A stretch of DNA of 64,000 bases from sequence record NC_054918.1. One strand, written 5' to 3'. Shown in pieces: positions 1,109 through 23,958 of the stretch. The notes beneath the pieces are model-generated. The model worked only from the letters and a program-made list of their open reading frames with translations. It did not search any database and was not told where the DNA came from. Source of the stretch: Escherichia phage vB_EcoM_G4498. The number at the start of each line of letters is the position of its first letter. The first letter of the stretch is position 1. The translations under genes and the position numbers were made by a program.

Positions 1109-2392
1109 ATGGCTAAAATCAACGAACTTCTGCGCGAATCAACCACAACGAATAGCAACTCAATCGGTCGCCCAAATCTCGTTGCTTTGACTCGCGCTAC
1201 CACTAAATTAATATATTCTGACATTGTAGCAACGCAAAGAACTAATCAACCTGTTGCTGCTTTTTATGGTATCAAATACCTTAACCCGGATAACGAATTT
1301 ACATTTAAAACTGGTGCTACTTACGCCGGCGAAGCTGGATATGTAGACCGAGAACAAATCACAGAATTAACAGAAGAGTCTAAATTAACTCTCAATAAGG
1401 GCGATTTATTCAAATATAATAATATCGTTTATAAAGTATTAGAAGATACACCATTTGCTGATATTGAAGAAAGCGATTTAGAATTAGCTCTTCAGATTGC
1501 AATTGTTCTTTTAAAGGTTCGTCTATTTTCTGACGCAGCGTCAACAAGCAAATTTGAAAGCTCTGATAGTGAAATTGCGGATGCTAGATTCCAGATTAAT
1601 AAATGGCAAACCGCAGTTAAATCTCGTAAACTTAAAACTGGTATCACAGTTGAATTAGCACAAGATTTAGAAGCAAATGGATTCGATGCTCCTAATTTCT
1701 TGGAAGATTTGCTTGCAACTGAAATGGCAGATGAAATCAATAAAGATATTCTGCAGTCTTTGATTACAGTGTCAAAACGCTATAAAGTTACAGGAATTAC
1801 TGATACTGGATTCATCGATTTGAGTTATGCATCTGCACCTGAAGCTGGTCGTTCATTATACCGAATGGTATGTGAAATGGTTTCGCATATCCAAAAAGAA
1901 TCAACTTATACAGCAACGTTCTGTGTTGCTTCAGCTCGTGCTGCTGCGATTCTTGCTGCATCAGGTTGGTTAAAACATAAACCAGAAGATGATAAATATC
2001 TTTCACAAAATGCCTATGGGTTCTTAGCTAATGGTTTACCGCTTTATTGCGATACTAACAGCCCATTAGATTATGTAATCGTTGGTGTAGTAGAAAATAT
2101 CGGTGAAAAAGAAATTGTTGGATCAATTTTCTATGCTCCGTATACAGAAGGTCTTGACTTAGATGACCCTGAACATGTAGGTGCATTTAAAGTTGTAGTT
2201 GACCCAGAAAGTTTGCAGCCATCTATCGGTTTATTAGTTAGATATGCTTTATCAGCAAATCCTTACACTGTAGCAAAAGATGAAAAAGAAGCAAGAATAA
2301 TTGATGGTGGAGACATGGATAAAATGGCGGGTCGTTCAGATTTGTCTGTTTTATTAGGTGTTAAGCTACCAAAAATTATCGTTGATGAATAA
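1109..2392 (+). CDS. 24: Capsid vertex protein gp24
   Basis: 427-aa ORF, MAKINELLRESTTT..., gp23 paralog, position after 23. Confidence 0.95.
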   Translation: MAKINELLRESTTTNSNSIGRPNLVALTRATTKLIYSDIVATQRTNQPVAAFYGIKYLNPDNEFTFKTGATYAGEAGYVDREQITELTEESKLTLNKGDLFKYNNIVYKVLEDTPFADIEESDLELALQIAIVLLKVRLFSDAASTSKFESSDSEIADARFQINKWQTAVKSRKLKTGITVELAQDLEANGFDAPNFLEDLLATEMADEINKDILQSLITVSKRYKVTGITDTGFIDLSYASAPEAGRSLYRMVCEMVSHIQKESTYTATFCVASARAAAILAASGWLKHKPEDDKYLSQNAYGFLANGLPLYCDTNSPLDYVIVGVVENIGEKEIVGSIFYAPYTEGLDLDDPEHVGAFKVVVDPESLQPSIGLLVRYALSANPYTVAKDEKEARIIDGGDMDKMAGRSDLSVLLGVKLPKIIVDE

Positions 2393-2398
2393 AACAAA

Positions 2399-2420
2399 GG
2401 GACCTTTCGGTCCCTTTTTA
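2399..2420. terminator. Bidirectional hairpin terminator between gene 24 and rnlB
   Basis: GGGACCTTTCGGTCCC palindromic hairpin flanked by A/T runs on both strands. Confidence 0.7.
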
Positions 2421-2421
2421 T

Positions 2422-3426
2422 TTAACTTACCAATTCAATCCAAGCCGGACGAAGTACATCTTGTACCATTTTAACTAATTCCTTTTTAACCAAAGAAGGA
2501 TTATCTGCTCGAGTTAGAGTAATACCTTCACGAGAAGTTTCTTCCAAAATATCTTGAACAGTTAGTCCCATCACCTTTCCAAAATCCTTCGGACCAATTT
2601 CACCAATTTTAGAAATAACGTTATTTACTCGGTTCAGTGTAACGTAGCAAGCTAAAATTCCCACCAATTTGTTATCAGCTTCTGATAGTTCAACTTTAGC
2701 TTTAATAGGCTTATCAGACTTTTTCTTTTCACTAAATTTGGAATTCTTGCATTTGATGGCTACACGATTTCCATTATGAAGCCAAGAAGGATAACAAGGT
2801 TTCAATACATATCCTTCAGCGGTAAATACTTCGCCTTTGGCTTCAGCTTTCCAAACACATTTGTTAGCGTCAACTAATCCAGCATGGTCTACTGTAAAAT
2901 TATAATCTTGGACGACAGAATCTAAATCATTTGGCAATTTAATAAGTTCTTCAAATTTACCACGACCTAAAAGTGGAGCCATTTTAAATTTAAATGTATT
3001 ACAAAATGATTCCATCATATAATCATCGACATAAGTCACATCACCACTTTCTGTAGTGACAATAATGTCAAATACATAAAAATCTTTATCGCCATAATCG
3101 ACATTCTTCTGAATGCCAGGTCCAGCGAATTCGCCAAAGACTTGATAAGATACAACCGCTGAGGTTTCCATAATATCTTGTACTGCTTTAATAGAATCTT
3201 CGTAATTCTTTAGAATAATTTCATACCCAAAGAAATCTTCAGCAGGAAGAATCGGTCCAGTACGTTTAGCGCAAGTTACTTTATCACGCTCAATAATCAA
3301 TGAGAAATTTGTGCCGTGAATCTTTTCACGAGCTACCCACTCCCCACCAGTCAATCCCAAGCTATAAAGTTTTTCAATAAATTTAGAGTTGTAATGATTT
3401 TCAAGACTGCTATACTTTTTAAACAT
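2422..3426 (-). CDS. rnlB: RNA ligase 2 (Rnl2)
   Basis: 334-aa [27 protein letters not shown]...; matches T4 Rnl2; KxHGxN ligase motif (KIHGTN). Confidence 0.95.
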
Positions 3427-3435
3427 AATTAATCC

Positions 3436-3714
3436 TCAAAATGTAATTTCTAACCAATCACCATCACGCTGATCACTATTGACTTTAAAGCTGAATCCTT
3501 CTTTTCTCAGCCAATCACCAATTTCTTCAGTAATCAATTTATCACGAGCAATACAATAATAACTAAAATGTGTTTTACCTTGTTCAGCTGCTTTATTAGC
3601 AAGTTCCGAAAAATCTTTAATAAAACACTCTAGCTTAAACTGTTTACTTTTAAGTGCTTTTTCGCGCAATTGATTAGCAAAAGATTCATTTTCATAAAGA
3701 TCATACTGTTCCAT
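3436..3714 (-). CDS. Hypothetical protein, positional equivalent of T4 24.2
   Basis: 92-aa ORF in syntenic position. Confidence 0.6.
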   Translation of the reverse strand: MEQYDLYENESFANQLREKALKSKQFKLECFIKDFSELANKAAEQGKTHFSYYCIARDKLITEEIGDWLRKEGFSFKVNSDQRDGDWLEITF

Positions 3715-3916
3715 TTTTCACCTTTTTATTGATATGTCTTTTTCTATAGACGACTTTTTCTCGAGTTTCAAATTTATTTTTAGCAGTCATAGCTCGAGCC
3801 CATAATACAGCCACTTCTTTTGCCTGTAAGTTTAATTCACGAGCAATTTCAATGAATGACTTTCCAGACTCATGAAGAGTAAACACCACAACCTCAGTTC
3901 TCATAATCAATCTCAT
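3701..3916 (-). CDS. Hypothetical small protein with HTH-like segment, positional equivalent of T4 24.3 (start uncertain)
   Basis: 71-aa ORF; no clear SD at first ATG. Confidence 0.5.
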   Translation of the reverse strand: MRLIMRTEVVVFTLHESGKSFIEIARELNLQAKEVAVLWARAMTAKNKFETREKVVYRKRHINKKVKNGTV

Positions 3917-3984
3917 GTTATCGAGTTGGTGCCATTATATACATCATTTTCTGATTGTGTTTTGTGTGCTTTCAAAATGAAGAA

Positions 3985-4000
3985 AGGGGCCGAAGCCCCT
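3985..4000 (-). terminator. Hairpin terminator downstream of hoc
   Basis: AGGGGCCGAAGCCCCT hairpin followed on minus strand by TTCTTCATTTT. Confidence 0.6.
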
Positions 4001-4005
4001 TATGA

Positions 4006-5424
4006 TTATGGATAGGTATAGATGATACCAGTTTCTAAAGCAGTTTTATGAATGATGTATCCATTACGCGATTCTTGAACATCAACTTCTGGATAGTCTT
4101 TCATCATCTTCTGAAGAGTGTAACGATGTAGGTAATATTTACTATCTGGGTCGTCAGTTTTCCAATCTTTACCTTCTTCGGTCATTTTTTGGATTTCATC
4201 CATAACCCACCAACCGCACCAGATATAAGCTGAAGTACGATGTGGAAGAGGATGAACATAAGGTAGTTCACCTTCTGGTTCTGGAGCAACTTTATCAGTT
4301 ACCTGAACTTGACCTTCTGCTGTAATAGTTTTGCTATCGTAATCAGTTGCAGTAACGACAGCAGTAACTTCAATAGTTTGACTTCCAACAGATGAGGTAT
4401 CGACAGTATATACGTTAGTTGACCCTTCTACAGGAGAAGAATCTTTCTTCCATGAGTAAGTAATTTGTGCTTCTTCTGGAGCACCCGTAACATTAGCCGT
4501 AAATGTAGCCGAAGCATCTTGCTGAACATTAATAGAAGGAGGAGTCAATGTAACCTGTGGATTCATTGTCTTCTTATTAACTGTCAATGATACTTCATTA
4601 GAAGTAACTTCCTTTTCATTGTAATTTTCAGCAGTTACTTGGGCTACGCATTTAATTCTTTTTACTCCACTTGTAGTTGGAGTATAGCTAAATGTAGAGT
4701 TAGTTTCTCCACCAACTTGTGAATCATCTACATACCACTGATACGTAGCAGACGCTCCATCAGGTTGAGAAGCTAAGGCAGCAGTAAATTGAACTGGGGT
4801 TCCGATTACTCCCGCTGGAGGACTATCAGGAGTTACTGCCAAAGTAGTTGTCTGCGTCTTTTTATTAACAGTCAGTGACACTTCATTGGAAGTAACTTCC
4901 TTTGTATCATAATCTGTCGCGGTTACTTGAGCTACGCACTTAATTGTTTTAACTCCGCTTGCGTCAGGAGTGTAATTGAATGTAGTGCTAGTTGCTTCGC
5001 CCACAGGAGAACCGTCAACGTACCATTGATACGTAGCGTTTGCACCTGATGGCTGTGAAGCTAAGGCAGCGGTAAATTCAATTGGAGTTCCAATCACTCC
5101 AGCATCAGGGCTACCAGGAGTTACTGCCAAAGTAGTTGTTTGTGTCTTATTTTGAACTGTGATAGTTGTACTAATTTCAGCTGTTTCAGGTTCAGATTCT
5201 GCAACTTGATTGGTTGCAACTACTTTAATAGTCTTTTGACCGGCAGGTCCTTTTAGTACATAACTAAAAGTTGCTGACGTTTCTTCCTGTGGAGCGTCGT
5301 CTACAGTCCAAGCATATGTAATAGTTCCGCCTCCAGTTTCACCACTGGGTGTAGCAGTAAACTGCTTAGTTTCATCAATAACCCCTGTCGGTGTTTTAGG
5401 AGTTATATCAACTGTAAAAGTCAT
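4006..5424 (-). CDS. hoc: Hoc, highly immunogenic outer capsid protein, 472 aa with four Ig-like repeats
   Basis: N- and C-termini match T4 Hoc (MTFTVDITPKTPTG... / ...HKTALETGIIYTYP); one extra 96-aa repeat relative to the 376-aa T4 protein. Confidence 0.9.
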   Translation of the reverse strand: MTFTVDITPKTPTGVIDETKQFTATPSGETGGGTITYAWTVDDAPQEETSATFSYVLKGPAGQKTIKVVATNQVAESEPETAEISTTITVQNKTQTTTLAVTPGSPDAGVIGTPIEFTAALASQPSGANATYQWYVDGSPVGEATSTTFNYTPDASGVKTIKCVAQVTATDYDTKEVTSNEVSLTVNKKTQTTTLAVTPDSPPAGVIGTPVQFTAALASQPDGASATYQWYVDDSQVGGETNSTFSYTPTTSGVKRIKCVAQVTAENYNEKEVTSNEVSLTVNKKTMNPQVTLTPPSINVQQDASATFTANVTGAPEEAQITYSWKKDSSPVEGSTNVYTVDTSSVGSQTIEVTAVVTATDYDSKTITAEGQVQVTDKVAPEPEGELPYVHPLPHRTSAYIWCGWWVMDEIQKMTEEGKDWKTDDPDSKYYLHRYTLQKMMKDYPEVDVQESRNGYIIHKTALETGIIYTYP

Positions 5425-15237: not shown

Positions 15238-16202
15238 TGTATTCTTTAGAGGAATTTAATAATCAAGCAATAAACGCAGATTTCCAACGTAATAATATGT
15301 TCAGCTGTGTTTTTGCTACAACTCCATCAACTAAAAGCTCTTCGTTGATAAGTTCAATTAGCAACTTTTCTTATAATAACTTGGGCCTAAATTCAGATTG
15401 GTTAGGATTAACTCAAGGCGATATTAATCAGGGAATTACTACGCTAATTACAGCTGGCACACAAAAACTGATAAGAAAATCAGGGGTTAGTAAATATCTT
15501 ATTGGTGCCATGAGTCAACGTACAGTTCAAAGTTTATTAGGCTCATTTACAGTTGGTACATATTTAATTGACTTCTTTAACATGGCATATAACTCATCTG
15601 GATTGATGATATACTCTGTAAAAATGCCAGAGAATAGATTATCCTATGAAACTGACTGGAACTATAATTCTCCTAATATTCGTATAACTGGGAGAGAATT
15701 AGACCCTTTGGTTATTTCATTCAGAATGGATTCAGAAGCTTGTAACTATCGTGCAATGCAAGACTGGGTTAACGCTGTTCAAGACCCAGTAACTGGATTG
15801 CGTGCTTTGCCGCAAGATGTCGAGGCTGATATTCAGGTTAATCTTCATTCTCGCAATGGATTACCACATACTGCGGTGATGTTCACTGGATGCATTCCAG
15901 TGTCCGTAAGCGCTCCTGAGTTATCATATGATGGAGATAACCAAATAACTACATTTGATGTTACTTTTGCGTATAGAGTCATGCAGGCTGGAGCAGTTGA
16001 TAGACAAGCTGCGCTTGAATGGCTTGAATCTGCTGCTATAAATGGTATTCAAAGCGTTCTCGGAAATAGTGGAGGTGTCACTGGACTATCTAATTCGCTT
16101 TCACGACTTAGTAGATTAGGGGGAACTGCAGGAAGCATTTCAAATATTAACACTATGACAGGAATTGTCAATTCGCAAAGTAAAATATTAGGAGCAATAT
16201 AA
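15237..16202 (+). CDS. 54: Baseplate tail-tube initiator gp54
   Basis: 321-aa ORF; overlapping start with gene 48 stop. Confidence 0.9.
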   Translation: MYSLEEFNNQAINADFQRNNMFSCVFATTPSTKSSSLISSISNFSYNNLGLNSDWLGLTQGDINQGITTLITAGTQKLIRKSGVSKYLIGAMSQRTVQSLLGSFTVGTYLIDFFNMAYNSSGLMIYSVKMPENRLSYETDWNYNSPNIRITGRELDPLVISFRMDSEACNYRAMQDWVNAVQDPVTGLRALPQDVEADIQVNLHSRNGLPHTAVMFTGCIPVSVSAPELSYDGDNQITTFDVTFAYRVMQAGAVDRQAALEWLESAAINGIQSVLGNSGGVTGLSNSLSRLSRLGGTAGSISNINTMTGIVNSQSKILGAI

Positions 16203-16206
16203 CAAT

Positions 16207-16236
16207 GGGGACCTTTCGGTCCCCATATTTTTATTT
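16207..16236. terminator. Bidirectional hairpin terminator between gene 54 and the alt.-3-like ORF
   Basis: GGGGACCTTTCGGTCCCC followed by T-run. Confidence 0.7.
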
Positions 16237-16521
16237 ACGGAATGAAATGAAAGCAGCAACTGAAGCAACTAAACTGTCTTCAATATAAACTTCAATTTTT
16301 ACCGGAGCTTCTGACTCAAATTTACCTGTTACTACACCCTGAAAAATACTTTCAGTCTGTTCTGGCTTTGAAAAATTTTCAGAAGGAAAAATTCCGAACT
16401 TTTTATCTGTTCCAAAAATTTTGATAAATTCATCGTAAACTGCTTCATTAAAAGCATTATCAGCAGGAATAACGCCTTCAACTACAAGTTCTTGACCTAA
16501 AAAGCGCAAAGAAGATTTCAT
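16231..16521 (-). CDS. Hypothetical protein, positional equivalent of alt.-3
   Basis: 96-aa ORF with GAGGAA SD; early promoter immediately upstream. Confidence 0.6.
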   Translation of the reverse strand: MKSSLRFLGQELVVEGVIPADNAFNEAVYDEFIKIFGTDKKFGIFPSENFSKPEQTESIFQGVVTGKFESEAPVKIEVYIEDSLVASVAAFISFRK

Positions 16522-16552
16522 TTTGTGTTCCTCATGTTATGTCAGTAAGACT

Positions 16553-16582
16553 ACTATAACACAACACGAGGGACTTGTAAAC
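16553..16582 (-). promoter_or_regulatory. T4-type early promoter
   Basis: Minus strand GTTTAC, 18 nt, TATAGT; near-identical copy at 32477..32506. Confidence 0.6.
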
Positions 16583-18639
16583 TACATCTTGAACTTTTTA
16601 GACATTCCGTTGATGTTAACCAAAGAAGCTAAGATTTGAGAAACTTCGTTTTCCTCTTCTTTTGATTCTTCTACAAGGAATTGATTAAATCCAGCCATTG
16701 GACGAACTTCACCAGTTTCCATTAGATGGTCGCCATCATATACTGATTCTTCTAATTGTTCAGAAGGAGGAACGATTGTACCTTCGATTAGATACTTGTT
16801 ATAAGCAGTTTCTTTCATAAAGTAAGTACTTACTTTATTAATCTTCAGTAAAATTCCACGTGGTAGAATAACTTCAGCTTCTGACGGAAATCCTGATAAA
16901 TGACCCGGAACGATAACTTTGATTCGCTCAGCTCCTTTAATTACCATACCCACGCTAGTTTCAGCATCTTCATTAGCATATGTAGAATGACTACCCATAT
17001 GCATCAAATCTTCTGCATCAACGGAACCTTCTCCTTCACCAGAAAATACTGCGCCGGAATCATCTAGAGCCATATAGTTTTTACCATGCTCACCGAAGAT
17101 ATTTGGTTTAAGCGATGTGGATACGAAGTTCTTGAAATAGAACATTTTATTTTCAATGTTATGACGCAAAGTTTTAAAGGTAACTTCTTGTCCACGGTAA
17201 AGTGTAGTTCCTGGAGGAAGAACTGAACCTTTAGCGAATGCAGAATCAAGCGTCTCAATATGTTTAATAGCTCGTTCCATATATTCTTCACGGGTAGAAT
17301 CTGGTTTACCCAAAAGGAACGAGTTCATTTCAACATATGAATCTGCACAATAATCTTCAATTACATCAGATTCAGCTTGAGTTAATCCTTTTGGAGTTAC
17401 TTCAGTGCTTGCGTATTCATATGCCTGAGCAGCAGATTCATTAATCAATTTATAAATGCCATTCATGACAAATTGAATAATAGCTGTCTTTTCATCTGGC
17501 GTAGCTTTAGAACCTTTAACCAAATCATTGATAATTTTCTTAATAACATCAAAGCTATTAGAAATATTAATATCAGCAAGATCGCTTAAAATTTTATCAG
17601 TCTTATAATCAAAGAATTCTTTATTCTTTAAATATTCTTGAGAACCTTGATATGTTATATCGCTCTGTAACTTGATAGATGGATCACGTAAACGTGCATG
17701 GGCTAATGCAATATGATTTCGGAAGCTTTCGAGTTCATAATCACTAGATTTAAAACGAGAAGCGCTTCTCATACCGCCTATAGCTCCTTTGCTGAAGTTT
17801 GAACCAATTTGAATAACGCCAGAGTTCATTGGTCCTTCTGCTTTATACACCGGAACTTTAGATTCAAACTCTTGATATTTCTTAGCAGCGAAGCTATCAC
17901 CCTGAAGTGAAGCATCAACAGTAGAATATTGAGCTTGTGCTGCTAATCGACGACTAATTTTAGTTTTCTGAATAACAGCTTGGTCCGTGCGCTTATCATT
18001 TTCTAAAGCAATAGAAGCAGCAACAGCAACAGCTTTAGGAACAGCATTACCTGTTTTAACATCTACATAAACATCACCAACCTTTGATTCAACTTTTGTG
18101 AATAACTCAGTTGAAATAGGAGGTACACCTGGAATGTCTTCTAAATTGGCATTTTTACGATAAACCATAATATATGCGTACTTTTTATCATAATCCCAGA
18201 TTTCCTTTAAAAGAACATATCGACCTGCTCCTTTAGTACGTACTAAACGGTCAGCAATAACTTGCATTTGACGAGCAGCGCCATTTGTTTTACTCTTTAG
18301 TACGCGGAATAAGCATGCATCAATTTTATACTGTTTCATTGTTTGAAGAGCAGTATCAAAAACAGCGTTAATGACGCCAATTGGATTTCCACCCAAGTTT
18401 CTAAGTTTAACCAGTGATAATTTCTCGTTGACACCTATCATTACGATATGCATCATTTTATCGCCCGGCTTAACGTTTTTATTTGTATCACCTCCAGAGG
18501 TGTATGTACAAAATCTAAATCCAGGAAGCACGCTTTCTTCGCCGGCTTGAATAGCAAAAATTTGAGGTATTTTATGCTTAGGATTTAAGTTAACAACCGG
18601 CGCCGAAGCGCCGTCAAATAATTCTGTAATAAGTTCCAT
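16582..18639 (-). CDS. Alt-like ADP-ribosyltransferase paralog (685 aa)
   Basis: N-terminus MELITELFD... closely similar to Alt; retains R (TLYRGQ), STS (FVSTSL) and ExE (EAEVILPRG) motifs; AGGA SD inside the alt 3' end. Confidence 0.85.
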   Translation of the reverse strand: MELITELFDGASAPVVNLNPKHKIPQIFAIQAGEESVLPGFRFCTYTSGGDTNKNVKPGDKMMHIVMIGVNEKLSLVKLRNLGGNPIGVINAVFDTALQTMKQYKIDACLFRVLKSKTNGAARQMQVIADRLVRTKGAGRYVLLKEIWDYDKKYAYIMVYRKNANLEDIPGVPPISTELFTKVESKVGDVYVDVKTGNAVPKAVAVAASIALENDKRTDQAVIQKTKISRRLAAQAQYSTVDASLQGDSFAAKKYQEFESKVPVYKAEGPMNSGVIQIGSNFSKGAIGGMRSASRFKSSDYELESFRNHIALAHARLRDPSIKLQSDITYQGSQEYLKNKEFFDYKTDKILSDLADINISNSFDVIKKIINDLVKGSKATPDEKTAIIQFVMNGIYKLINESAAQAYEYASTEVTPKGLTQAESDVIEDYCADSYVEMNSFLLGKPDSTREEYMERAIKHIETLDSAFAKGSVLPPGTTLYRGQEVTFKTLRHNIENKMFYFKNFVSTSLKPNIFGEHGKNYMALDDSGAVFSGEGEGSVDAEDLMHMGSHSTYANEDAETSVGMVIKGAERIKVIVPGHLSGFPSEAEVILPRGILLKINKVSTYFMKETAYNKYLIEGTIVPPSEQLEESVYDGDHLMETGEVRPMAGFNQFLVEESKEEENEVSQILASLVNINGMSKKFKM

Positions 18640-18642
18640 GAT

Positions 18643-20691
18643 TTATCCTTGAACGAACTTGTAAGGCATGTTTGTAATATCTATGCAAGACGCAATAATT
18701 CCAAGAGATGATTCTACTTTCTGTTTAACATTTGATGAAACAAATGATGCAAAGTCAACTCTATCTTCTATATCACCTGTCATTGTAACTACTTCGCCGG
18801 TTTCCATTAAACGGTCACCGTCATAAATTACTGATTCGGTGAGTTCTTCGGTGGTCATAACTTCAGCTTGAATAAGCTTGTTGTTAGTTTTGACTGTTCC
18901 ATCATTGTAAGATGCATCAGTTATTTTATTAACTTTGACCATTAATCCACGTGGCAAAATGACTTCCATTTCATTTGAAGGCGCTAAACTTCCACCGGGT
19001 AAAACAACATTGACTTTATCAGCCCCAGTAATAACCCATCCAATTCCGACTAAATTATCGCTAGAATTAACAAGCCCTTCATCATTTTTATCGATAGAAA
19101 TGTTTAGACGCTTTTCATCTGGTAAAACACCAACAGCTGAATCAGTCATCCAAGTACCAAAAATGTTTGGATATAATGATGTTGATACAAAATTTCTAAA
19201 ATAAAAAACTCGATTTTTTACCATTGCTTCGTATATTGAAGGTAACATTCGTTGTGAACGATACAAAGTAATACCTTTTGGTAATCGTTCACCATTTTTA
19301 AAGGCTGAATCTAAATTATCAATAGCTTTTTCTATGTCAGATGCTGTCAAAATACTTGTACGCTCATCTGGATTATATAATCCCAAAAGAGCATTATTTA
19401 TGTCTACATATCCTGAACCTACGTATTCACGAATTCCGCGTTTTTGTGCTGGTGTGTATTTAGATGAATCTTTATTTTCGACTATAGGATGTAATGACCA
19501 TCCAGCTGTAAGAGCATATCCACGTAATTCTCTTCGAATAATCTTTGTTTTTATTGCATTCCAAGAATTTTGTACTAACTCATTTGCAGCATCTTGGTTT
19601 AAATGCGAATGTTTGTTAATATTTCTTTCAAACCAAGCACCTTTATATTTTTCTAAAGTATCATCGACGATAGAAGCAATAGTTTCTAAAGTTTTTATTG
19701 AAGTAATAGATTCTTTTCGTAATTTTTCTAAAGCTTTATTTTTTATTTCTGCATTAATAATGGATTCTTTATCTTCAGGAATTATAGAAGCTTCTCTGAA
19801 TGCCATCCCAGCTGTAACACTGCTAAGAGCATTCTCTAGTGCAAATCCTGAAGTAGAAATTACCGTTAATTCATTAGAATCAGAAATTAAAGGCGCATCA
19901 GCGGGTTTATTTAATTCTGCTGCTGAAGCCTCAAATTTTTGAAACATCGGTGTTTCAAATCTAGAAGATTCCAATGACTGACTTTGTGCAATTGCTCTAC
20001 GGGAAATTTTAACTTTAACGATTACAGCTTGGTCAGAACGTTTATCATTTTCTTGTGCAATAGATGCTGCAATTGCCTCATTTTTGGTTACTTGAGCTCC
20101 GGTATCTTTATTGATATAAACATCACCGACCTTCGATTCAACTTTAGTAAAGAGCTCGGTACTAATTTCCGGAACTCCTGGAATGTCTTCTAGTGATACA
20201 TTTTTGCGATGTATAAGAATATATGCATACTTTTTATCATAATCCCAGAGTTCCTTAAGAAGGACGTATCTGCCACCTGAACGACTACGGATAAGTCTAT
20301 CAGCAATAACTTGAATTTGTCGAGCTTGACCAGCGGTTTTAGACTTAAGAATACGAAGCATACAAGCATCAATTTTATACTGACGCATTGTTTGCATTGC
20401 AACAGTAAAAACTGAATTGATATAATTAATTGGGCTTGGACCAAGACCTTTTAATTTAGCAATTGAACCTTTAGCGGTTAATGTAAAAGGAACAATATGC
20501 ATCATTTTATCGCCCATTTTTAAATCGCGATTAGTATCACCTCCAGATGTATAGGTACATAAACGAAAGCCTGGTTGTTCAATTGCATCATCAACATGAA
20601 CTGAAAAAATTTGCGGTATTTTCTTCTTTGGATTTAAGTTTGTAATCGGAAGAGTAGTATCTTCGTCAAATAATTCTGTAATAAGTTCCAT
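18643..20691 (-). CDS. alt: Alt, packaged ADP-ribosyltransferase
   Basis: 682-aa ORF from second ATG; MELITELFDEDTTLPITNLNPKKKIPQIF... matches T4 Alt; R / STS / ExE motifs. Confidence 0.95.
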   Translation of the reverse strand: MELITELFDEDTTLPITNLNPKKKIPQIFSVHVDDAIEQPGFRLCTYTSGGDTNRDLKMGDKMMHIVPFTLTAKGSIAKLKGLGPSPINYINSVFTVAMQTMRQYKIDACMLRILKSKTAGQARQIQVIADRLIRSRSGGRYVLLKELWDYDKKYAYILIHRKNVSLEDIPGVPEISTELFTKVESKVGDVYINKDTGAQVTKNEAIAASIAQENDKRSDQAVIVKVKISRRAIAQSQSLESSRFETPMFQKFEASAAELNKPADAPLISDSNELTVISTSGFALENALSSVTAGMAFREASIIPEDKESIINAEIKNKALEKLRKESITSIKTLETIASIVDDTLEKYKGAWFERNINKHSHLNQDAANELVQNSWNAIKTKIIRRELRGYALTAGWSLHPIVENKDSSKYTPAQKRGIREYVGSGYVDINNALLGLYNPDERTSILTASDIEKAIDNLDSAFKNGERLPKGITLYRSQRMLPSIYEAMVKNRVFYFRNFVSTSLYPNIFGTWMTDSAVGVLPDEKRLNISIDKNDEGLVNSSDNLVGIGWVITGADKVNVVLPGGSLAPSNEMEVILPRGLMVKVNKITDASYNDGTVKTNNKLIQAEVMTTEELTESVIYDGDRLMETGEVVTMTGDIEDRVDFASFVSSNVKQKVESSLGIIASCIDITNMPYKFVQG

Positions 20692-20714
20692 CATAGCCTC
20701 TCTAGTGTTTATTC

Positions 20715-20722
20715 TATTTATA
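20715..20722 (-). promoter_or_regulatory. Late promoter for alt
   Basis: TATAAATA on minus strand about 25 nt upstream of the alt ATG. Confidence 0.6.
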
Positions 20723-20728
20723 AAATTA

Positions 20729-20747
20729 AAGGCCCGAAGGCCTTTAG
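20729..20747 (-). terminator. Hairpin terminator downstream of gene 30 / small ORF
   Basis: AAAGGCCTTCGGGCCTTT followed by TTTAATTTT on minus strand. Confidence 0.65.
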
Positions 20748-20932
20748 TAATCTAGTGGTAAGAGAGTACGATATATTTCAAACTTTGGTCCTTTTTCATA
20801 GGCATCAAATGTTTCTGTAAATTTATTATAAGCGTATGCATCTACAAATTCGAGAATGACTTGTGATACAGAAGTAGAAACATCTCCACCTTCTTTTTGA
20901 GCAATGACAATTGTTTCTAAGTAAGCTTTCAT
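20744..20932 (-). CDS. Hypothetical 62-aa protein coupled to gene 30
   Basis: ORF start overlaps gene 30 stop (ATGA); its stop lies inside the terminator hairpin. Confidence 0.45.
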   Translation of the reverse strand: MKAYLETIVIAQKEGGDVSTSVSQVILEFVDAYAYNKFTETFDAYEKGPKFEIYRTLLPLDY

Positions 20933-22392
20933 AAACCAGTTACCTCATGAAAATCACCAAATACATCCTCGAATGTATTAGCTTTAGTTTTATCTTCACG
21001 TAAACGAATCGCAATCGGAAGAAATAATTTAACGTAATCAGTGCGGCCATCAGATTTTAACCAACCGTTGCATTCGCACTCTAGAATTTTTCCAATATAA
21101 TAATTTTGGTTTTCCATAATGCGAGTACGGTCAAGTTCATGCGATTTTACACCGGCTTTATCTTTTAAGCCTGAACCAGCATTTACCTTAATTTTTCCAC
21201 ACTCTGATTCAAGAATAAATCCACCCGCTTTAGTAGGGTCTTTACGGTGAGGATAAATTCCTACAATTTTTAAATCAACATCAATTACTTCTTTAAATTT
21301 ATAGAGATTTTTTGAACGAGCATTTTCCCACAATCCATCGGTATTTTTGAGAATAATACCTTCAAGACCTTGGTCAATATACTTTTTATAAATTACCTTA
21401 GCTTCATCTAGGTTATTTACTACCTGGTTTTCAATTAAAATTACTTTATCATAACCTGATGTCATTTGTTCTAGTTTAGAAAAACGTACATCATATTTCA
21501 AACGAAATGCAGGAAGACCGTATATTTCTACCAACGGGACATAATCCCAGACCTGAAACTTCATGCATTGAGCTTCTTTTTCAGAAATGGTTCCCTTTAA
21601 AGATTTATTGGCGATGCCATTAGATGCAGTACGTGATTCAGCTACTTCGGCGAATTCTTTAGCTTTACTAATTTCAGGATAAGCATCAAAAAGAAAATCT
21701 AGGCCTTCTGGCTCCTTTTCAACTTGCTCATGGTATACCAATTCGCCATCAATTAACACACCTTCTGGATGAATCTGGCGAGCTTCTGCAGTCATTTTGA
21801 TTAACTCTTCCTTAAGAAGATCTAATCCTAGATATTCATTACCAGCTCGTGATAAAAGACGAACATCATCTAATTCATCACCTCTGACTTCAGCAAAACA
21901 CCGAGCTCCATCAGCTTTTAACTGGGCAAAGGCTGGAAATTTGATATTCTTATTAATGCCTTTTTCATCATAAGAACTTGCAAGCATTTGAGGTTGTTCA
22001 GGAATTAAACCTGGCCAAACTTTGTTTGCAATAGATACTGAAGCACCGCATTCAAGGTCTCGCATCATCACCCGACGCAAAACTTCAACATCATCTTTTT
22101 TACCGTCAGTAATATATCCAGTTAATTCCTCAATTGCCGCATTTCCAGTCAATTTCCGAGTAGCTAACGTGAATTCAATGAAGTCAAGCATATCGGTAAG
22201 AGTCAACATTCCAAAACTCTGGGTAGCAATACCTGGTTTAGGCCATTTCTTGATATAATACTGTAACCCACGAGAATAAGTCAGACGATATACTCGTTTA
22301 AGCAATTCATTATCTTTATTCTTTTCAAGAATTGCTTGCTTCTGCTTAGTTGAACCAATAGATGCTATTTCGTTCAGAATTTTAAGAATCAT
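20929..22392 (-). CDS. 30: ATP-dependent DNA ligase gp30
   Basis: 487-aa ORF MILKILNEIASIGSTKQKQAILEKNKDNELL...; matches T4 DNA ligase; adenylation lysine motif (KADGAR). Confidence 0.97.
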   Translation of the reverse strand: MILKILNEIASIGSTKQKQAILEKNKDNELLKRVYRLTYSRGLQYYIKKWPKPGIATQSFGMLTLTDMLDFIEFTLATRKLTGNAAIEELTGYITDGKKDDVEVLRRVMMRDLECGASVSIANKVWPGLIPEQPQMLASSYDEKGINKNIKFPAFAQLKADGARCFAEVRGDELDDVRLLSRAGNEYLGLDLLKEELIKMTAEARQIHPEGVLIDGELVYHEQVEKEPEGLDFLFDAYPEISKAKEFAEVAESRTASNGIANKSLKGTISEKEAQCMKFQVWDYVPLVEIYGLPAFRLKYDVRFSKLEQMTSGYDKVILIENQVVNNLDEAKVIYKKYIDQGLEGIILKNTDGLWENARSKNLYKFKEVIDVDLKIVGIYPHRKDPTKAGGFILESECGKIKVNAGSGLKDKAGVKSHELDRTRIMENQNYYIGKILECECNGWLKSDGRTDYVKLFLPIAIRLREDKTKANTFEDVFGDFHEVTGL

Positions 22393-22658: not shown

Positions 22659-23497
22659 TAGAATGCTCCTTGGAAAATATTATCACCACTAGTAGGTCTA
22701 TTATACAAATACTCTATGCCACCAGGTTTAATATAGTTCCATGTCTGAAACGGATGTGTCTGATATGGATGATATAGATGATTATAAGGATTAAATCCAG
22801 GAGTTCTCCAGGTAGTGTTCCAAGGAAAAGAATCGTTTTTGATCATCTTCTCAATTACATCTTTTATAGCTTTTTCACTATCAAAACTTTCTTTATTTTC
22901 CTTTGGTGAAAAAAGCTTATTTTCTACATCATTCCATGTATAAACTCGCTGTGCAGTTTTTGGAATATTGTCACGCTCTCCTCGAGCCATCCAATAAACA
23001 GGAACATTTAATATTTCACTCGCGTGATCGCAGTGGTGAGCGAGATCGTCAATATAACAAATTACGTTATATTTCTCTTTTGCCTTTTTGAACAACTCTT
23101 CTTTTGAAGAATCATGACCACACATCAATACTTCTGAGAAGGCACCAGGAAAAAGAGCATTCAAATTAAATTGACGATTCAGCAGAGCGTCAATAGAATC
23201 ACCCAATGCTGTAACAGCTACAAAATTATAATCTTCTTTTAATTTGTTAATTACACACAGGGCATCTTTATATGGAGACAAGTAACGAATAAAATCTGAA
23301 CGATTGTATTTTTCAATTAACTTGACGCCAAGTTCTTCATCACAATTAAAGAGTTTACCAGGAGAAATAAATTTCTCATCTTGGATCATTTTTAAAATAT
23401 GTTCTAACGGAAGATTATATTTCTGAGCAAAATAAGGAAGGCCTGATTGCCAGCTTAAACATACTCCATCAATATCAGTTAAAATAGTAGGCTTCAT
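22658..23497 (-). CDS. HAD-superfamily hydrolase-like protein, positional equivalent of 30.2
   Basis: 279-aa ORF; N-terminal ILTDIDGV (DxDG phosphatase motif). Confidence 0.65.
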   Translation of the reverse strand: MKPTILTDIDGVCLSWQSGLPYFAQKYNLPLEHILKMIQDEKFISPGKLFNCDEELGVKLIEKYNRSDFIRYLSPYKDALCVINKLKEDYNFVAVTALGDSIDALLNRQFNLNALFPGAFSEVLMCGHDSSKEELFKKAKEKYNVICYIDDLAHHCDHASEILNVPVYWMARGERDNIPKTAQRVYTWNDVENKLFSPKENKESFDSEKAIKDVIEKMIKNDSFPWNTTWRTPGFNPYNHLYHPYQTHPFQTWNYIKPGGIEYLYNRPTSGDNIFQGAF

Positions 23498-23958
23498 AGA
23501 GAGTCTCTTAATAGGTTTAACACATCAATAAATTCAGCTTCGGTTAATATTGTATCATCTTTTGTTAGACCACTAGCCATGCTGTGCTTCAAAACTTTTC
23601 CTTTCGAGGCGTGTAATGCATCACGAAAGCCCTTGTTTTGGATCGCTGCTTCAAAATATGCATTTGTGTATAATTCTTTCCATGCTGGGGAGTATCTTGA
23701 AAACGGAACTCCAAGCCAGAAGAGGGTCCCACGGTCCTGAGCTCTAGCATAAGACCTTCCAGCTTGTTGGGCGGCAAGCCCGGATAACCCAAATATACGA
23801 CGTTGTTGTTCAGCATTTTTCACCTTGCATCCTTGGAGGAATCCTTCAAGACCTCCGAATTGAATACCATCCATGACGAAAGGCCATTGGGCGAAATTAC
23901 TTAATGCACACGATGGCCATCTAAAATTGCTTCTAATCTCTAACTCAGACATTTTCAA
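23494..23958 (-). CDS. NADAR/YbiA-like protein, positional equivalent of 30.3
   Basis: 154-aa ORF with ...LSNFAQWPFVMDG... and E-x-F-L-Q-G-x-K resembling the YbiA/NADAR signature (by eye). Confidence 0.55.
   Translation of the reverse strand: MKMSELEIRSNFRWPSCALSNFAQWPFVMDGIQFGGLEGFLQGCKVKNAEQQRRIFGLSGLAAQQAGRSYARAQDRGTLFWLGVPFSRYSPAWKELYTNAYFEAAIQNKGFRDALHASKGKVLKHSMASGLTKDDTILTEAEFIDVLNLLRDSL

Follow-up and report, generated by a model that had tools for sequence, protein, structure and literature searches.

An intact second alt-type gene next to alt in Escherichia phage vB_EcoM_G4498 and its probable product, a head-packaged ADP-ribosyltransferase

In Escherichia phage vB_EcoM_G4498 the gene alt is followed by an intact, selectively maintained paralogue, here termed alt2, which, judged from its sequence, probably encodes a second head-packaged and injected ADP-ribosyltransferase (ART) with partly different host targets. 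The analysis covered a stretch of 64,000 nucleotides (sequence record NC_054918.1), referred to as the window. The tandem pair is already known, being annotated in hundreds of genomes ('Alt-like ... x2'; alta/altb of phage IME08) and mentioned in papers, so alt2 as a genome feature is no discovery in its own right. The alt genes of T2, T4 and T6 were reportedly compared by Koch and Rüger in 1994.

Two adjacent minus-strand ORFs were listed in the window, alt at 18643-20691 and then alt2 at 16582-18639, and the locus has the following parts.

20727-20746, minus strand: terminator-like hairpin TAAAGGCCTTCGGGCCTTTA with a T-run, from the hairpin scan, closing the upstream early unit (gene 30/alt.1)
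20715-20722, minus strand: match to the T4 late-promoter consensus, TATAAATA, 23 nt before the alt ATG
18643-20691, minus strand: alt, an allele of the T4 type, 682 aa, with 98.5% identity to T4 Alt
18646-18650, minus strand: alt2 Shine-Dalgarno (SD) AAGGA, within the last two alt codons and 6 nt ahead of the alt2 ATG
16582-18639, minus strand: alt2, full-length Alt paralogue, 685 aa, 76.0 kDa
16553-16581, minus strand: early-type promoter-like site (TTTACA, 17 nt, TATAGT with TG), by motif only
16231-16521, minus strand: alt.-3, 96 aa, DUF5498, conserved downstream neighbour
16205-16226, no strand assigned: bidirectional terminator hairpin between alt.-3 (minus) and gene 54 (plus), from the hairpin scan

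The ATG at 20691, which gives the 682-aa product, is the annotated start of T4 Alt; counted from the upstream in-frame ATG, the alt ORF spans 18643-20694 (683 aa). At the alt/alt2 junction the coding strand reads CAA GGA TAA atc ATG, with the alt stop at 18643-18645, a 3-nt spacer and the alt2 ATG at 18637-18639, which confirms the claim of an earlier sequence-only reading that a second 685-aa ORF starts 3 nt after the alt stop with its SD inside the alt end. This placement of the SD suggests translational coupling of alt2 to alt. The TATAAATA motif occurs only once on the minus strand between 9941 and 26511 and would, as a consensus match, be the late promoter of alt; T4 alt is a late gene (PMC9697503). 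No strong terminator or promoter was found in the alt-alt2 interval by motif and hairpin scanning. A weak terminator-like hairpin inside alt2 (18363-18379) was judged a chance occurrence (5 sites in the scan, 2.9 expected). In phage G4507 a terminator is annotated at the place matching the hairpin at 20727-20746. The early-type promoter-like site lies directly 3' of the alt2 stop, in front of alt.-3, and the hairpin at 16205-16226 is the predicted end of the alt-alt2-alt.-3 transcription unit. A tRNA scan of the window returned no tRNA genes.

The protein alignment of the two ORFs proposed in the sequence-only reading was performed using BLASTP and gave 41% identity with E = 2e-157; the resemblance is homology and not chance. 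Neither Alt nor Alt2 had a significant BLASTP match to T4 ModA or ModB (E of at least 1), and Alt2 was rejected as a Mod relative. ModA and ModB have the R-S-E type of catalytic logic in common with Alt2 (R-G and E-Q-E motifs), but are unpackaged early proteins of 200 aa that lack the N-terminal module. The regions used in the comparison were as follows.

17926-18639, minus strand: alt2 N-terminal module, codons 1-238, AF2 pLDDT 84.7, precomputed Pfam family PF26846
17380-17925, minus strand: alt2 divergent middle region, codons 239-420, mostly helical
16765-17379, minus strand: alt2 ADP-ribosyltransferase domain, codons 421-625
16585-16755, minus strand: alt2 C-terminal region, with the L-E-E631 motif at 16747-16755 and then a predicted 54-residue propeptide
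17194-17196 (R482), 17113-17121 (S507-T-S509) and 16873-16881 (E587-A-E589), minus strand: Alt2 catalytic codons
19258-19260 (R478), 19177-19185 (S-T-S 503-505) and 18964-18972 (E-M-E 574-576), minus strand: Alt catalytic codons

In a three-sequence alignment Alt and Alt2 were 67.5% identical over residues 1-238, about 24% over the middle region 239-420 (18% in a twelve-sequence alignment), 36% over residues 421-625 and 42% over the C-terminal tail; the earlier description of an N-terminal part of about 230 residues close to Alt and a divergent middle thus holds. The two proteins diverge most in three places, namely the helical middle, the loop that follows S-T-S and the ARTT loop preceding E-x-E, and these may be the different target-recognition regions that the same reading had proposed. 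The N-terminal module is presumed to be a head-targeting or core-binding module, and a GNAT-type acetyltransferase fold with an acetyl-CoA-binding motif A was considered for it. Used alone as a query, it retrieved only 6 proteins, all of them Alt-family fragments or truncated forms, and no fusion to a non-ART effector.

Alt2 carries the catalytic set TLYRGQ (R482), FVSTSL (S507-T508-S509) and EAEVILPRG (E587/E589), and on alignment the R / S-T-S / E-x-E residues are kept in both copies, each full length, as had been noticed from the sequence. Pfam PF03496 (ADPrib_exo_Tox; cut-off 23.4 bits) matched Alt with 125 bits and Alt2 with 71.9 bits (E = 5.8e-20, residues 416-620), phrog_802 'Alt-like' covered Alt2 residues 1-685 with E = 2e-256, and the precomputed Pfam assignment for Alt2 is PF26846 plus PF03496; no NCBIfam model matched Alt or Alt2. 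Searched as a single sequence, Alt2 had no match in the PDB at E ≤ 0.01, and a family profile was needed. The profile aligned Y481-R482 ('itlYR') with Y-R of BECa, iota Ia and CDTa, and E587-A-E589 with E-Y-E of BECa and Q-Y-E of C3; the profile-to-PDB alignments did not span the S-T-S segment. The catalytic Arg is invariant in A1 and A2; S507 and S509 are likewise invariant and T508 nearly so (one Ala, in IME08 altb). The E-x-E of Alt2 matches the Alt residue at which an E-to-A change (E577A) abolishes activity (PMC11404850). The ARTT loop reads G-F-P-S-E-A-E in Alt2 and A-P-S-N-E-M-E in Alt, with the canonical aromatic residue of Alt2 (F584) three positions ahead of E-x-E and a proline at that place in Alt, and the loop after S-T-S (residues ~514-558) is acidic in Alt2, unlike in Alt, and of low confidence in the AF2 model, which is of moderate confidence overall (pLDDT 73). 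The fold predicted for Alt2 is an ART fold, and by sequence profile and predicted fold Alt2 belongs among the arginine-specific C3/VIP2/Vis-type enzymes. Compared with C3, VIP2, iota-Ia, CDTa and Vis, it has an insertion of ~50 residues after S-T-S and identities of only 14-26%; those R-S-E toxins depend on secretion or a binding component, whereas Alt-type delivery is via the phage capsid.

T4 Alt (gpAlt, NP_049811) is a head-packaged, injected Arg-specific mono-ADP-ribosyltransferase, and Alt2 matches it in length class, architecture and transcription unit as well as in the PF03496 R / S-T-S / E-x-E domain, the ITE-6 motif and a YDGDxLMETGE block, which in Alt2 lies within the predicted propeptide. 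The gp21 cleavage sites of T4 Alt are ITE-6 and LTE-619 (PMC5694885), and the alt of the window carries both (LTE-619 at 18835-18843). The N-terminus of Alt2, MELITE with L after the cut, is identical to that of Alt, i.e. ITE-6 is kept, and L-E-E631 aligns with LTE-619; each protein contains several of these short L/I-x-E motifs. Motif conservation points to cleavage of Alt2 at both sites and to its packaging. A search of the literature on the second Alt found no virion proteomics, activity assay, target list or biochemistry.

Under the favoured reading, alt2 would be carried on a late transcript shared with alt and started at the TATAAATA promoter, without a promoter of its own, and translated by coupling to alt through the SD inside the alt end and the 3-nt spacer. 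Alt2 would enter the prohead core through the N-terminal module common to Alt, be trimmed by the prohead protease gp21 at ITE-6 and LEE-631 to a mature protein of ~69 kDa, and be injected with the DNA, and it would then mono-ADP-ribosylate arginines of host proteins, in an NAD+-dependent manner, immediately after infection. Since Alt2 is unlike Alt in the middle region and in both the post-STS and the ARTT loop, it would most likely modify partly different host proteins.

The sequence-only reading had considered that the interval might be the known alt.-1/alt.-2 arrangement of T4. The window differs, and the T4 interval holds no intact homologue, owing to a 1-nt deletion and a deletion of the following segment.

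16602-18300, minus strand: segment deleted in T4, 1,699 bp, codons 114-680, flanked by the near-repeats CTAAAGAGT / CTAAAAAGT

T4 alt.-1 and alt.-2 (NP_049810 and NP_049809) are annotated as 'an old duplication of the first part of gene alt', whereas the gene in the window is intact. They occupy the same position as alt2, between alt and alt.-3, and are orthologous to it at the DNA level, with 92-97% identity over the retained 359 + 102 bp. T4 lost one base at the position equivalent to 18480 (codon 54, in an A5 run), and this loss combined with the 1,699-bp deletion gave rise to alt.-1 and alt.-2; in the window the A5 run is intact and the 16602-18300 segment complete. The PHROG families of alt.-1 and alt.-2 scored 138 and 129 bits on Alt2 versus 78 and 70 on Alt. 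By these comparisons alt.-1/alt.-2 are decayed remnants of alt2 and not a partial duplication. As T4 lost alt2, the gene is not required under all conditions.

Among orthologues, alt2 is under strong purifying selection, with dN/dS of 0.02-0.06 at dS of 0.15-0.24 (0.03-0.04 for the ART domain) and zero or one replacement in the N-terminal module. Intact alt2 was present at ≥ 95% identity in about 400 phage records, T2 and RB14 included, and the T4-type deletion in about 91; alt2 is intact in about four fifths of the sequenced Tequatrovirus records matching the locus. Phages FL08 and G4500 are identical to the window. Phage PST apparently has a single alt/alt2 chimera that keeps the alt2 body, which may be an assembly collapse; a common third state of this type was rejected, as PST alone has it. 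The gene is the intact counterpart of T4 alt.-1/alt.-2 and corresponds to the 'alt.-2' of RB14, and two-gene annotations also include T2 BBF63359 and the RefSeq name 'Alt-like RNA polymerase ADP-ribosyltransferase (x2)'. In the Dhakavirus phages IME08 and JS10, alta and altb form a tandem pair between alt.1 and alt.-3, as in the window, and in IME08 the two abut without a spacer. Overall identity between alt2 and its orthologue, IME08 altb, is 50%, and the acidic loop of altb is much longer than that of Alt2, with a net charge of -17. The middle and ART regions follow orthology, whereas relatedness among the N-terminal modules tracks the genus, with 65-68% identity inside a genome and 42-47% between genera.

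The shared architecture, catalytic set and processing motifs would also suit a redundant back-up or dosage copy, packaged like Alt and acting on whatever Alt modifies, RNA polymerase alpha Arg265 included. T4 alt is itself non-essential (PMC9026906), T4 lost alt2 without obvious defect and lives without it, as do its close relatives (91 records), and PST appears to retain only the alt2 body, all of which fits redundancy, and partial redundancy with Alt is plausible. We nevertheless regard full redundancy as unlikely, as the catalytic domains are only ~36% and the middle regions ~20% identical and the ARTT and post-STS loops differ. Moreover, about 400 genomes maintain alt and alt2 next to each other, both by strong purifying selection, and a second genus has kept the pairing of these effector types (alta/altb of Dhakavirus); such retention would be unexpected under pure redundancy.

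Co-transcription with a late gene would also suit an active ART that is made late, left unpackaged and directed at, for example, late host or phage proteins in the infected cell. This seems improbable, given conservation of the N-terminal module, ITE-6 and the aligned C-terminal L-x-E, which make sense mainly in a core-packaged, gp21-processed protein. T4 shows that alt2 can decay, yet a catalytically dead structural or core protein, or a decaying duplicate, is very hard to reconcile with catalytic residues that are all kept, invariant or nearly so across the family, with the low dN/dS of the ART domain and with an ORF intact in about 400 records. The preferred reading is therefore still an active, injected Alt2 with partly different targets, which would give two-gene phages four ADP-ribosyltransferases as against three in T4.

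A wider, tentative reading, at somewhat less than even chances, is that the T-even alt locus is a two-slot polymorphic effector cassette with exchangeable ART bodies and that Alt2 is a fourth T-even ART acting on host targets of its own. The bodies, possibly exchanged by recombination, would be framed by an N-terminal head-delivery module specific to the lineage and by a C-terminal propeptide that is conserved. When T4-type alt alleles are compared with T2-type ones, identity reaches 99.6% for the N module and 98.5% for the C tail, against 33% for the middle and 65% for the ART domain, and the T2-type ART shares 95.7% identity with the ART of Dhakavirus alta. Under the cassette reading Alt2 might act on host proteins involved in defence or on toxins, as with Alt and MazF. 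Viral ADP-ribosylation has T4 as its reference system, with the three enzymes Alt, ModA and ModB, and if the cassette reading is true, the picture built on these enzymes would be incomplete for most T4 relatives. If Alt2 has its own targets, behavioural differences between T2 and T4 could partly trace to alt2, and natural T-even phages would depart from textbook T4 in host takeover and perhaps in counter-defence.

The locus lies in a segment of a Tequatrovirus (T4-like) genome, in which 16200-20950 was 100% identical to Escherichia phages FL08, G4500, G29 and ESCO58 and was matched by 529 phage records in all. Gene order around alt, which encodes the head-packaged, injected ADP-ribosyltransferase Alt, and its paralogue alt2 was as in T4, with genes 29, 48 and 54 on the plus strand and gene 30 (ligase), alt.1, alt, alt2 and alt.-3 on the minus strand. 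The 683-aa alt ORF returned by the ORF tool was due to an in-frame ATG at 20694.

Features of the alt/alt2 locus
16205-16226, interval from alt.-3 to gene 54, strong hairpin that scores as a terminator on either strand
16553-16581, early-type promoter-like site (TTTACA, 17 nt, TATAGT) right after the alt2 stop, before alt.-3 (DUF5498)
16582-18639, minus strand, second large ORF, alt2, 685 aa
18643-18645, minus strand, alt stop, followed by three bases and the alt2 ATG
18646-18650, minus strand, AAGGA, within the final two alt codons
18643-20691, minus strand, alt, 682 aa
20692-20694, minus strand, in-frame ATG just 5' of the annotated alt start (MMELITE...)

The coding strand at the junction reads CAA GGA TAA atc ATG, so that alt2 starts 3 nt past the alt stop with its Shine-Dalgarno sequence in the end of alt, as described in the sequence-only reading. 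Elsewhere in the window, a 75-aa ORF at 23589-23816 (minus strand), in another frame within the gene 30.3 homologue (23494-23958), matches the annotated internal T4 gene 30.3' in position.

Alt of the window was 98.5% identical to T4 Alt. Alt and Alt2 were 41% identical by BLASTP (E = 2e-157), with alignment showing strong variation by region: 67.5% over the N-terminal module (N module, Alt2 residues 1-238), about 24% over the mostly helical middle region (residues 239-420; 18% in a larger alignment), about 36% over the catalytic ADP-ribosyltransferase (ART) domain (residues 421-625) and about 42% over the C-terminal tail. The closeness of the first 230 or so residues and the divergence of the middle had both been noted beforehand, and that description of alt2 was right in all details. 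Pfam PF03496 (ADPrib_exo_Tox, cut-off 23.4 bits) matched Alt with 125 bits and Alt2 with 71.9 bits, and the PHROG family 'Alt-like RNA polymerase ADP-ribosyltransferase' matched both end to end. No significant pairwise similarity to Alt or Alt2 was found for ModA and ModB, the other ADP-ribosyltransferases of T4.

On alignment, Alt2 kept the R, S-T-S and E-x-E elements expected of it as Y481-R482, S507-T508-S509 and E587-A-E589. In a six-member family profile, Y-R and E-x-E aligned to their counterparts in BECa, iota toxin Ia, CDTa and VIP2, and E-x-E to the Q-x-E of C3. Residues R482, S507, S509, E587 and E589 were invariant in 21 Alt-family sequences, and T508 nearly so. The E577A substitution abolishes ADP-ribosylation by T4 Alt (PMC11404850). 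Because the only glutamates near this position are E574 and E576 in the 682-aa numbering (E575 and E577 with the upstream Met counted), E577 is the second E-x-E glutamate, the counterpart of E589 in Alt2; the upstream in-frame ATG probably explains why one paper has E577 for E576. Sequence and fold thus give good support to the prediction that Alt2 is catalytically competent, as both copies had been proposed to be.

The T4 annotation describes alt.-1 and alt.-2, short ORFs between alt and alt.-3, as 'an old duplication of the first part of gene alt'; alignment shows otherwise. T4 and the window were collinear at 96-97% identity save for two lesions within alt2, namely the loss, at codon 54, of one base in a run of five A (window 18480) and a 1,699-bp deletion of codons 114-680 (window 16602-18300) with two near-identical 9-mers, CTAAAGAGT and CTAAAAAGT, at its ends. 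Alt2-specific residues, e.g. GASAPVV, were present in alt.-1 and alt.-2, and the PHROG families of these ORFs scored 138 and 129 bits, respectively, on Alt2 versus 78 and 70 on Alt. The T4 ORFs are therefore the remains of a formerly full-length alt2, and the T4 interval, for which the sequence-only reading had left open whether it encodes an intact homologue, does not encode one; nor does the window have the T4 arrangement. No explicit published statement of an origin of alt.-1/alt.-2 by deletion from alt2 was found. The T4-type deletion junction was present in 91 of the 498 records matching the region.

Arrangements of the locus (rough, megablast-based counts)
T4-type alt with alt2, as in the window: about 229 records
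Other alt allele with alt2: about 170 records
T4-type deletion: about 91 records

Where intact, alt2 is a live gene. Pairwise dN/dS (Nei-Gojobori) among the orthologues of the window, T2, RB14 and FL34 was 0.02-0.06 (dS 0.15-0.24), with 0.00-0.01 in the N module, 0.03-0.04 in the ART domain and 0.08-0.13 in the middle region, compared with 0.06-0.08 for alt orthologues. In a tblastn search with Alt2 residues 241-646, where it diverges from Alt, 400 phage records carried Alt2 at ≥95% identity, among them several BASEL phages, SHFML-11, T2 and RB14 (gene labelled 'alt.-2 hypothetical protein'). Alt2 falls in a protein cluster, built at 90% identity, of 772 member sequences.

A tandem alt pair also occurs in Dhakavirus, annotated alta/altb in IME08. 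Over the middle and ART regions, identity tracks orthology: 46-56% between alt2 and altb, against 17-39% in cross-comparisons. The N modules, unlike these regions, group by genome (65-68% identity between paralogues within either genus, 42-47% between genera), and the two protein halves have different histories. Such a grouping suggests that the N module has undergone gene conversion or recombination, or that the effector body was replaced. The first slot, alt, is polymorphic within Tequatrovirus, with at least two very different alleles, the 682-aa T4 type found in the window and a 697-aa T2 type; they were compared using window 18643-20691, 684-2777 of the T2 segment, RB14, FL34 and alta at 1639-3729 of the IME08 segment.

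Identity between alt alleles by region
T4-type against T2-type alt: N module 99.6%, middle 33%, ART 65%, C-terminal tail 98.5%
T2-type alt against IME08 alta: N module 46.6%, middle 65%, ART 95.7%, C-terminal tail 53%

This pattern looks like cassette exchange between genera. Metagenomic relatives combined similar N modules with additional types of effector. Yersinia phage PST (NC_027404) had one gene only between alt.1 and alt.-3 (2778-4838 of the PST segment), with Alt-type residues over the first ~100 positions, Alt2-type residues over the remainder and 93% identity to Alt2 overall. Its composition would make it a recombinant of the two N modules with the Alt body removed; the single gene was seen in PST alone and could be an assembly collapse. 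Three proteins of 323-379 aa (P0121, P0122 from Salmonella phage Melville, and P0125) comprised the Alt N-terminal module (PF26846) and part of the middle region without ART, which could reflect truncation, decay or a contig end.

A single match to the late-promoter consensus of T4, TATAAATA, was present on the minus strand in the region (20715-20722), 23 nt 5' of the alt ATG and directly past the terminator hairpin closing the alt.1 unit; in T4, alt belongs to the late genes (PMC9697503). Because neither a late promoter nor a convincing terminator was found between alt and alt2, the simplest reading is that the two would be co-transcribed and translationally coupled. In IME08, alta and altb abut with zero spacer. 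T4 Alt, present at about 40 copies, belongs to the prohead core; cleavage at ITE-6 and LTE-619 by gp21, the prohead protease, yields its mature form of 68.2 kDa (PMC5694885, PMC9026906), in agreement with the 68.2 kDa calculated for Alt residues 7-619. The N-terminus of Alt2, MELITE|L, was identical to that of Alt, and L-E-E631 aligned with LTE-619, followed by a conserved block, YDGDxLMETGE. Cleavage there by gp21 would leave a 69.1-kDa Alt2 and a 54-residue C-terminal propeptide. These putative expression, packaging and processing signals of Alt2 were read at motif level, and no virion proteomics reporting Alt2 was found in the literature.

Besides the middle region, two elements adjoining the active site differ between Alt and Alt2. 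The post-STS loop (40-55 residues, low-confidence in the AlphaFold model) is acidic in Alt2, the net charge from STS to ExE being -7, versus -17 in altb and about -3 to -4 in T2-type Alt and alta. The Alt2 stretch at about residues 514-558 (window about 16966-17100), acidic and of low confidence between S-T-S and the ARTT loop, is probably disordered. The ARTT loop before E-x-E reads G-F584-P-S-E-A-E in Alt2 and E-Y-A-E-E-A-E in altb; in each, an aromatic residue precedes the first Glu by three positions, as in C3 (A-Y-P-G-Q-Y-E) and BECa (G-Y-K-N-E-Y-E), whereas T4-type Alt has proline and T2-type Alt isoleucine at the position of F584. Since the ARTT loop contributes to substrate recognition in C3-like and binary toxins, a target range of Alt2 different from that of Alt is plausible. 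Of the earlier proposal, the divergence of the presumed target-recognition regions stands, in the middle region and both loops; different targets are only plausible.

The pair is named 'Alt-like RNA polymerase ADP-ribosyltransferase (x2)' in RefSeq and alt_1/alt_2 in other records. Among the ORFs that Nolan et al. (2006) listed as paralogues duplicated from alt are T4 alt.-1/alt.-2; the same study noted a full-length alt duplicate in Aeromonas phage 44RR (PMC1524935). According to a 2026 paper, phages 6phi13 and SHFML-11 have two Alt-like paralogues sharing 43% identity, and its authors speculate that the range of targets is thereby widened (PMC13600099). No experiments on the second Alt enzyme were found in the literature. 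The observation and interpretation of the sequence-only reading were correct, and the tandem pair is an already known genomic feature of a known enzyme family. What Alt2 does, and the way the locus behaves like a cassette, can readily be approached by experiment and do not come as a surprise.
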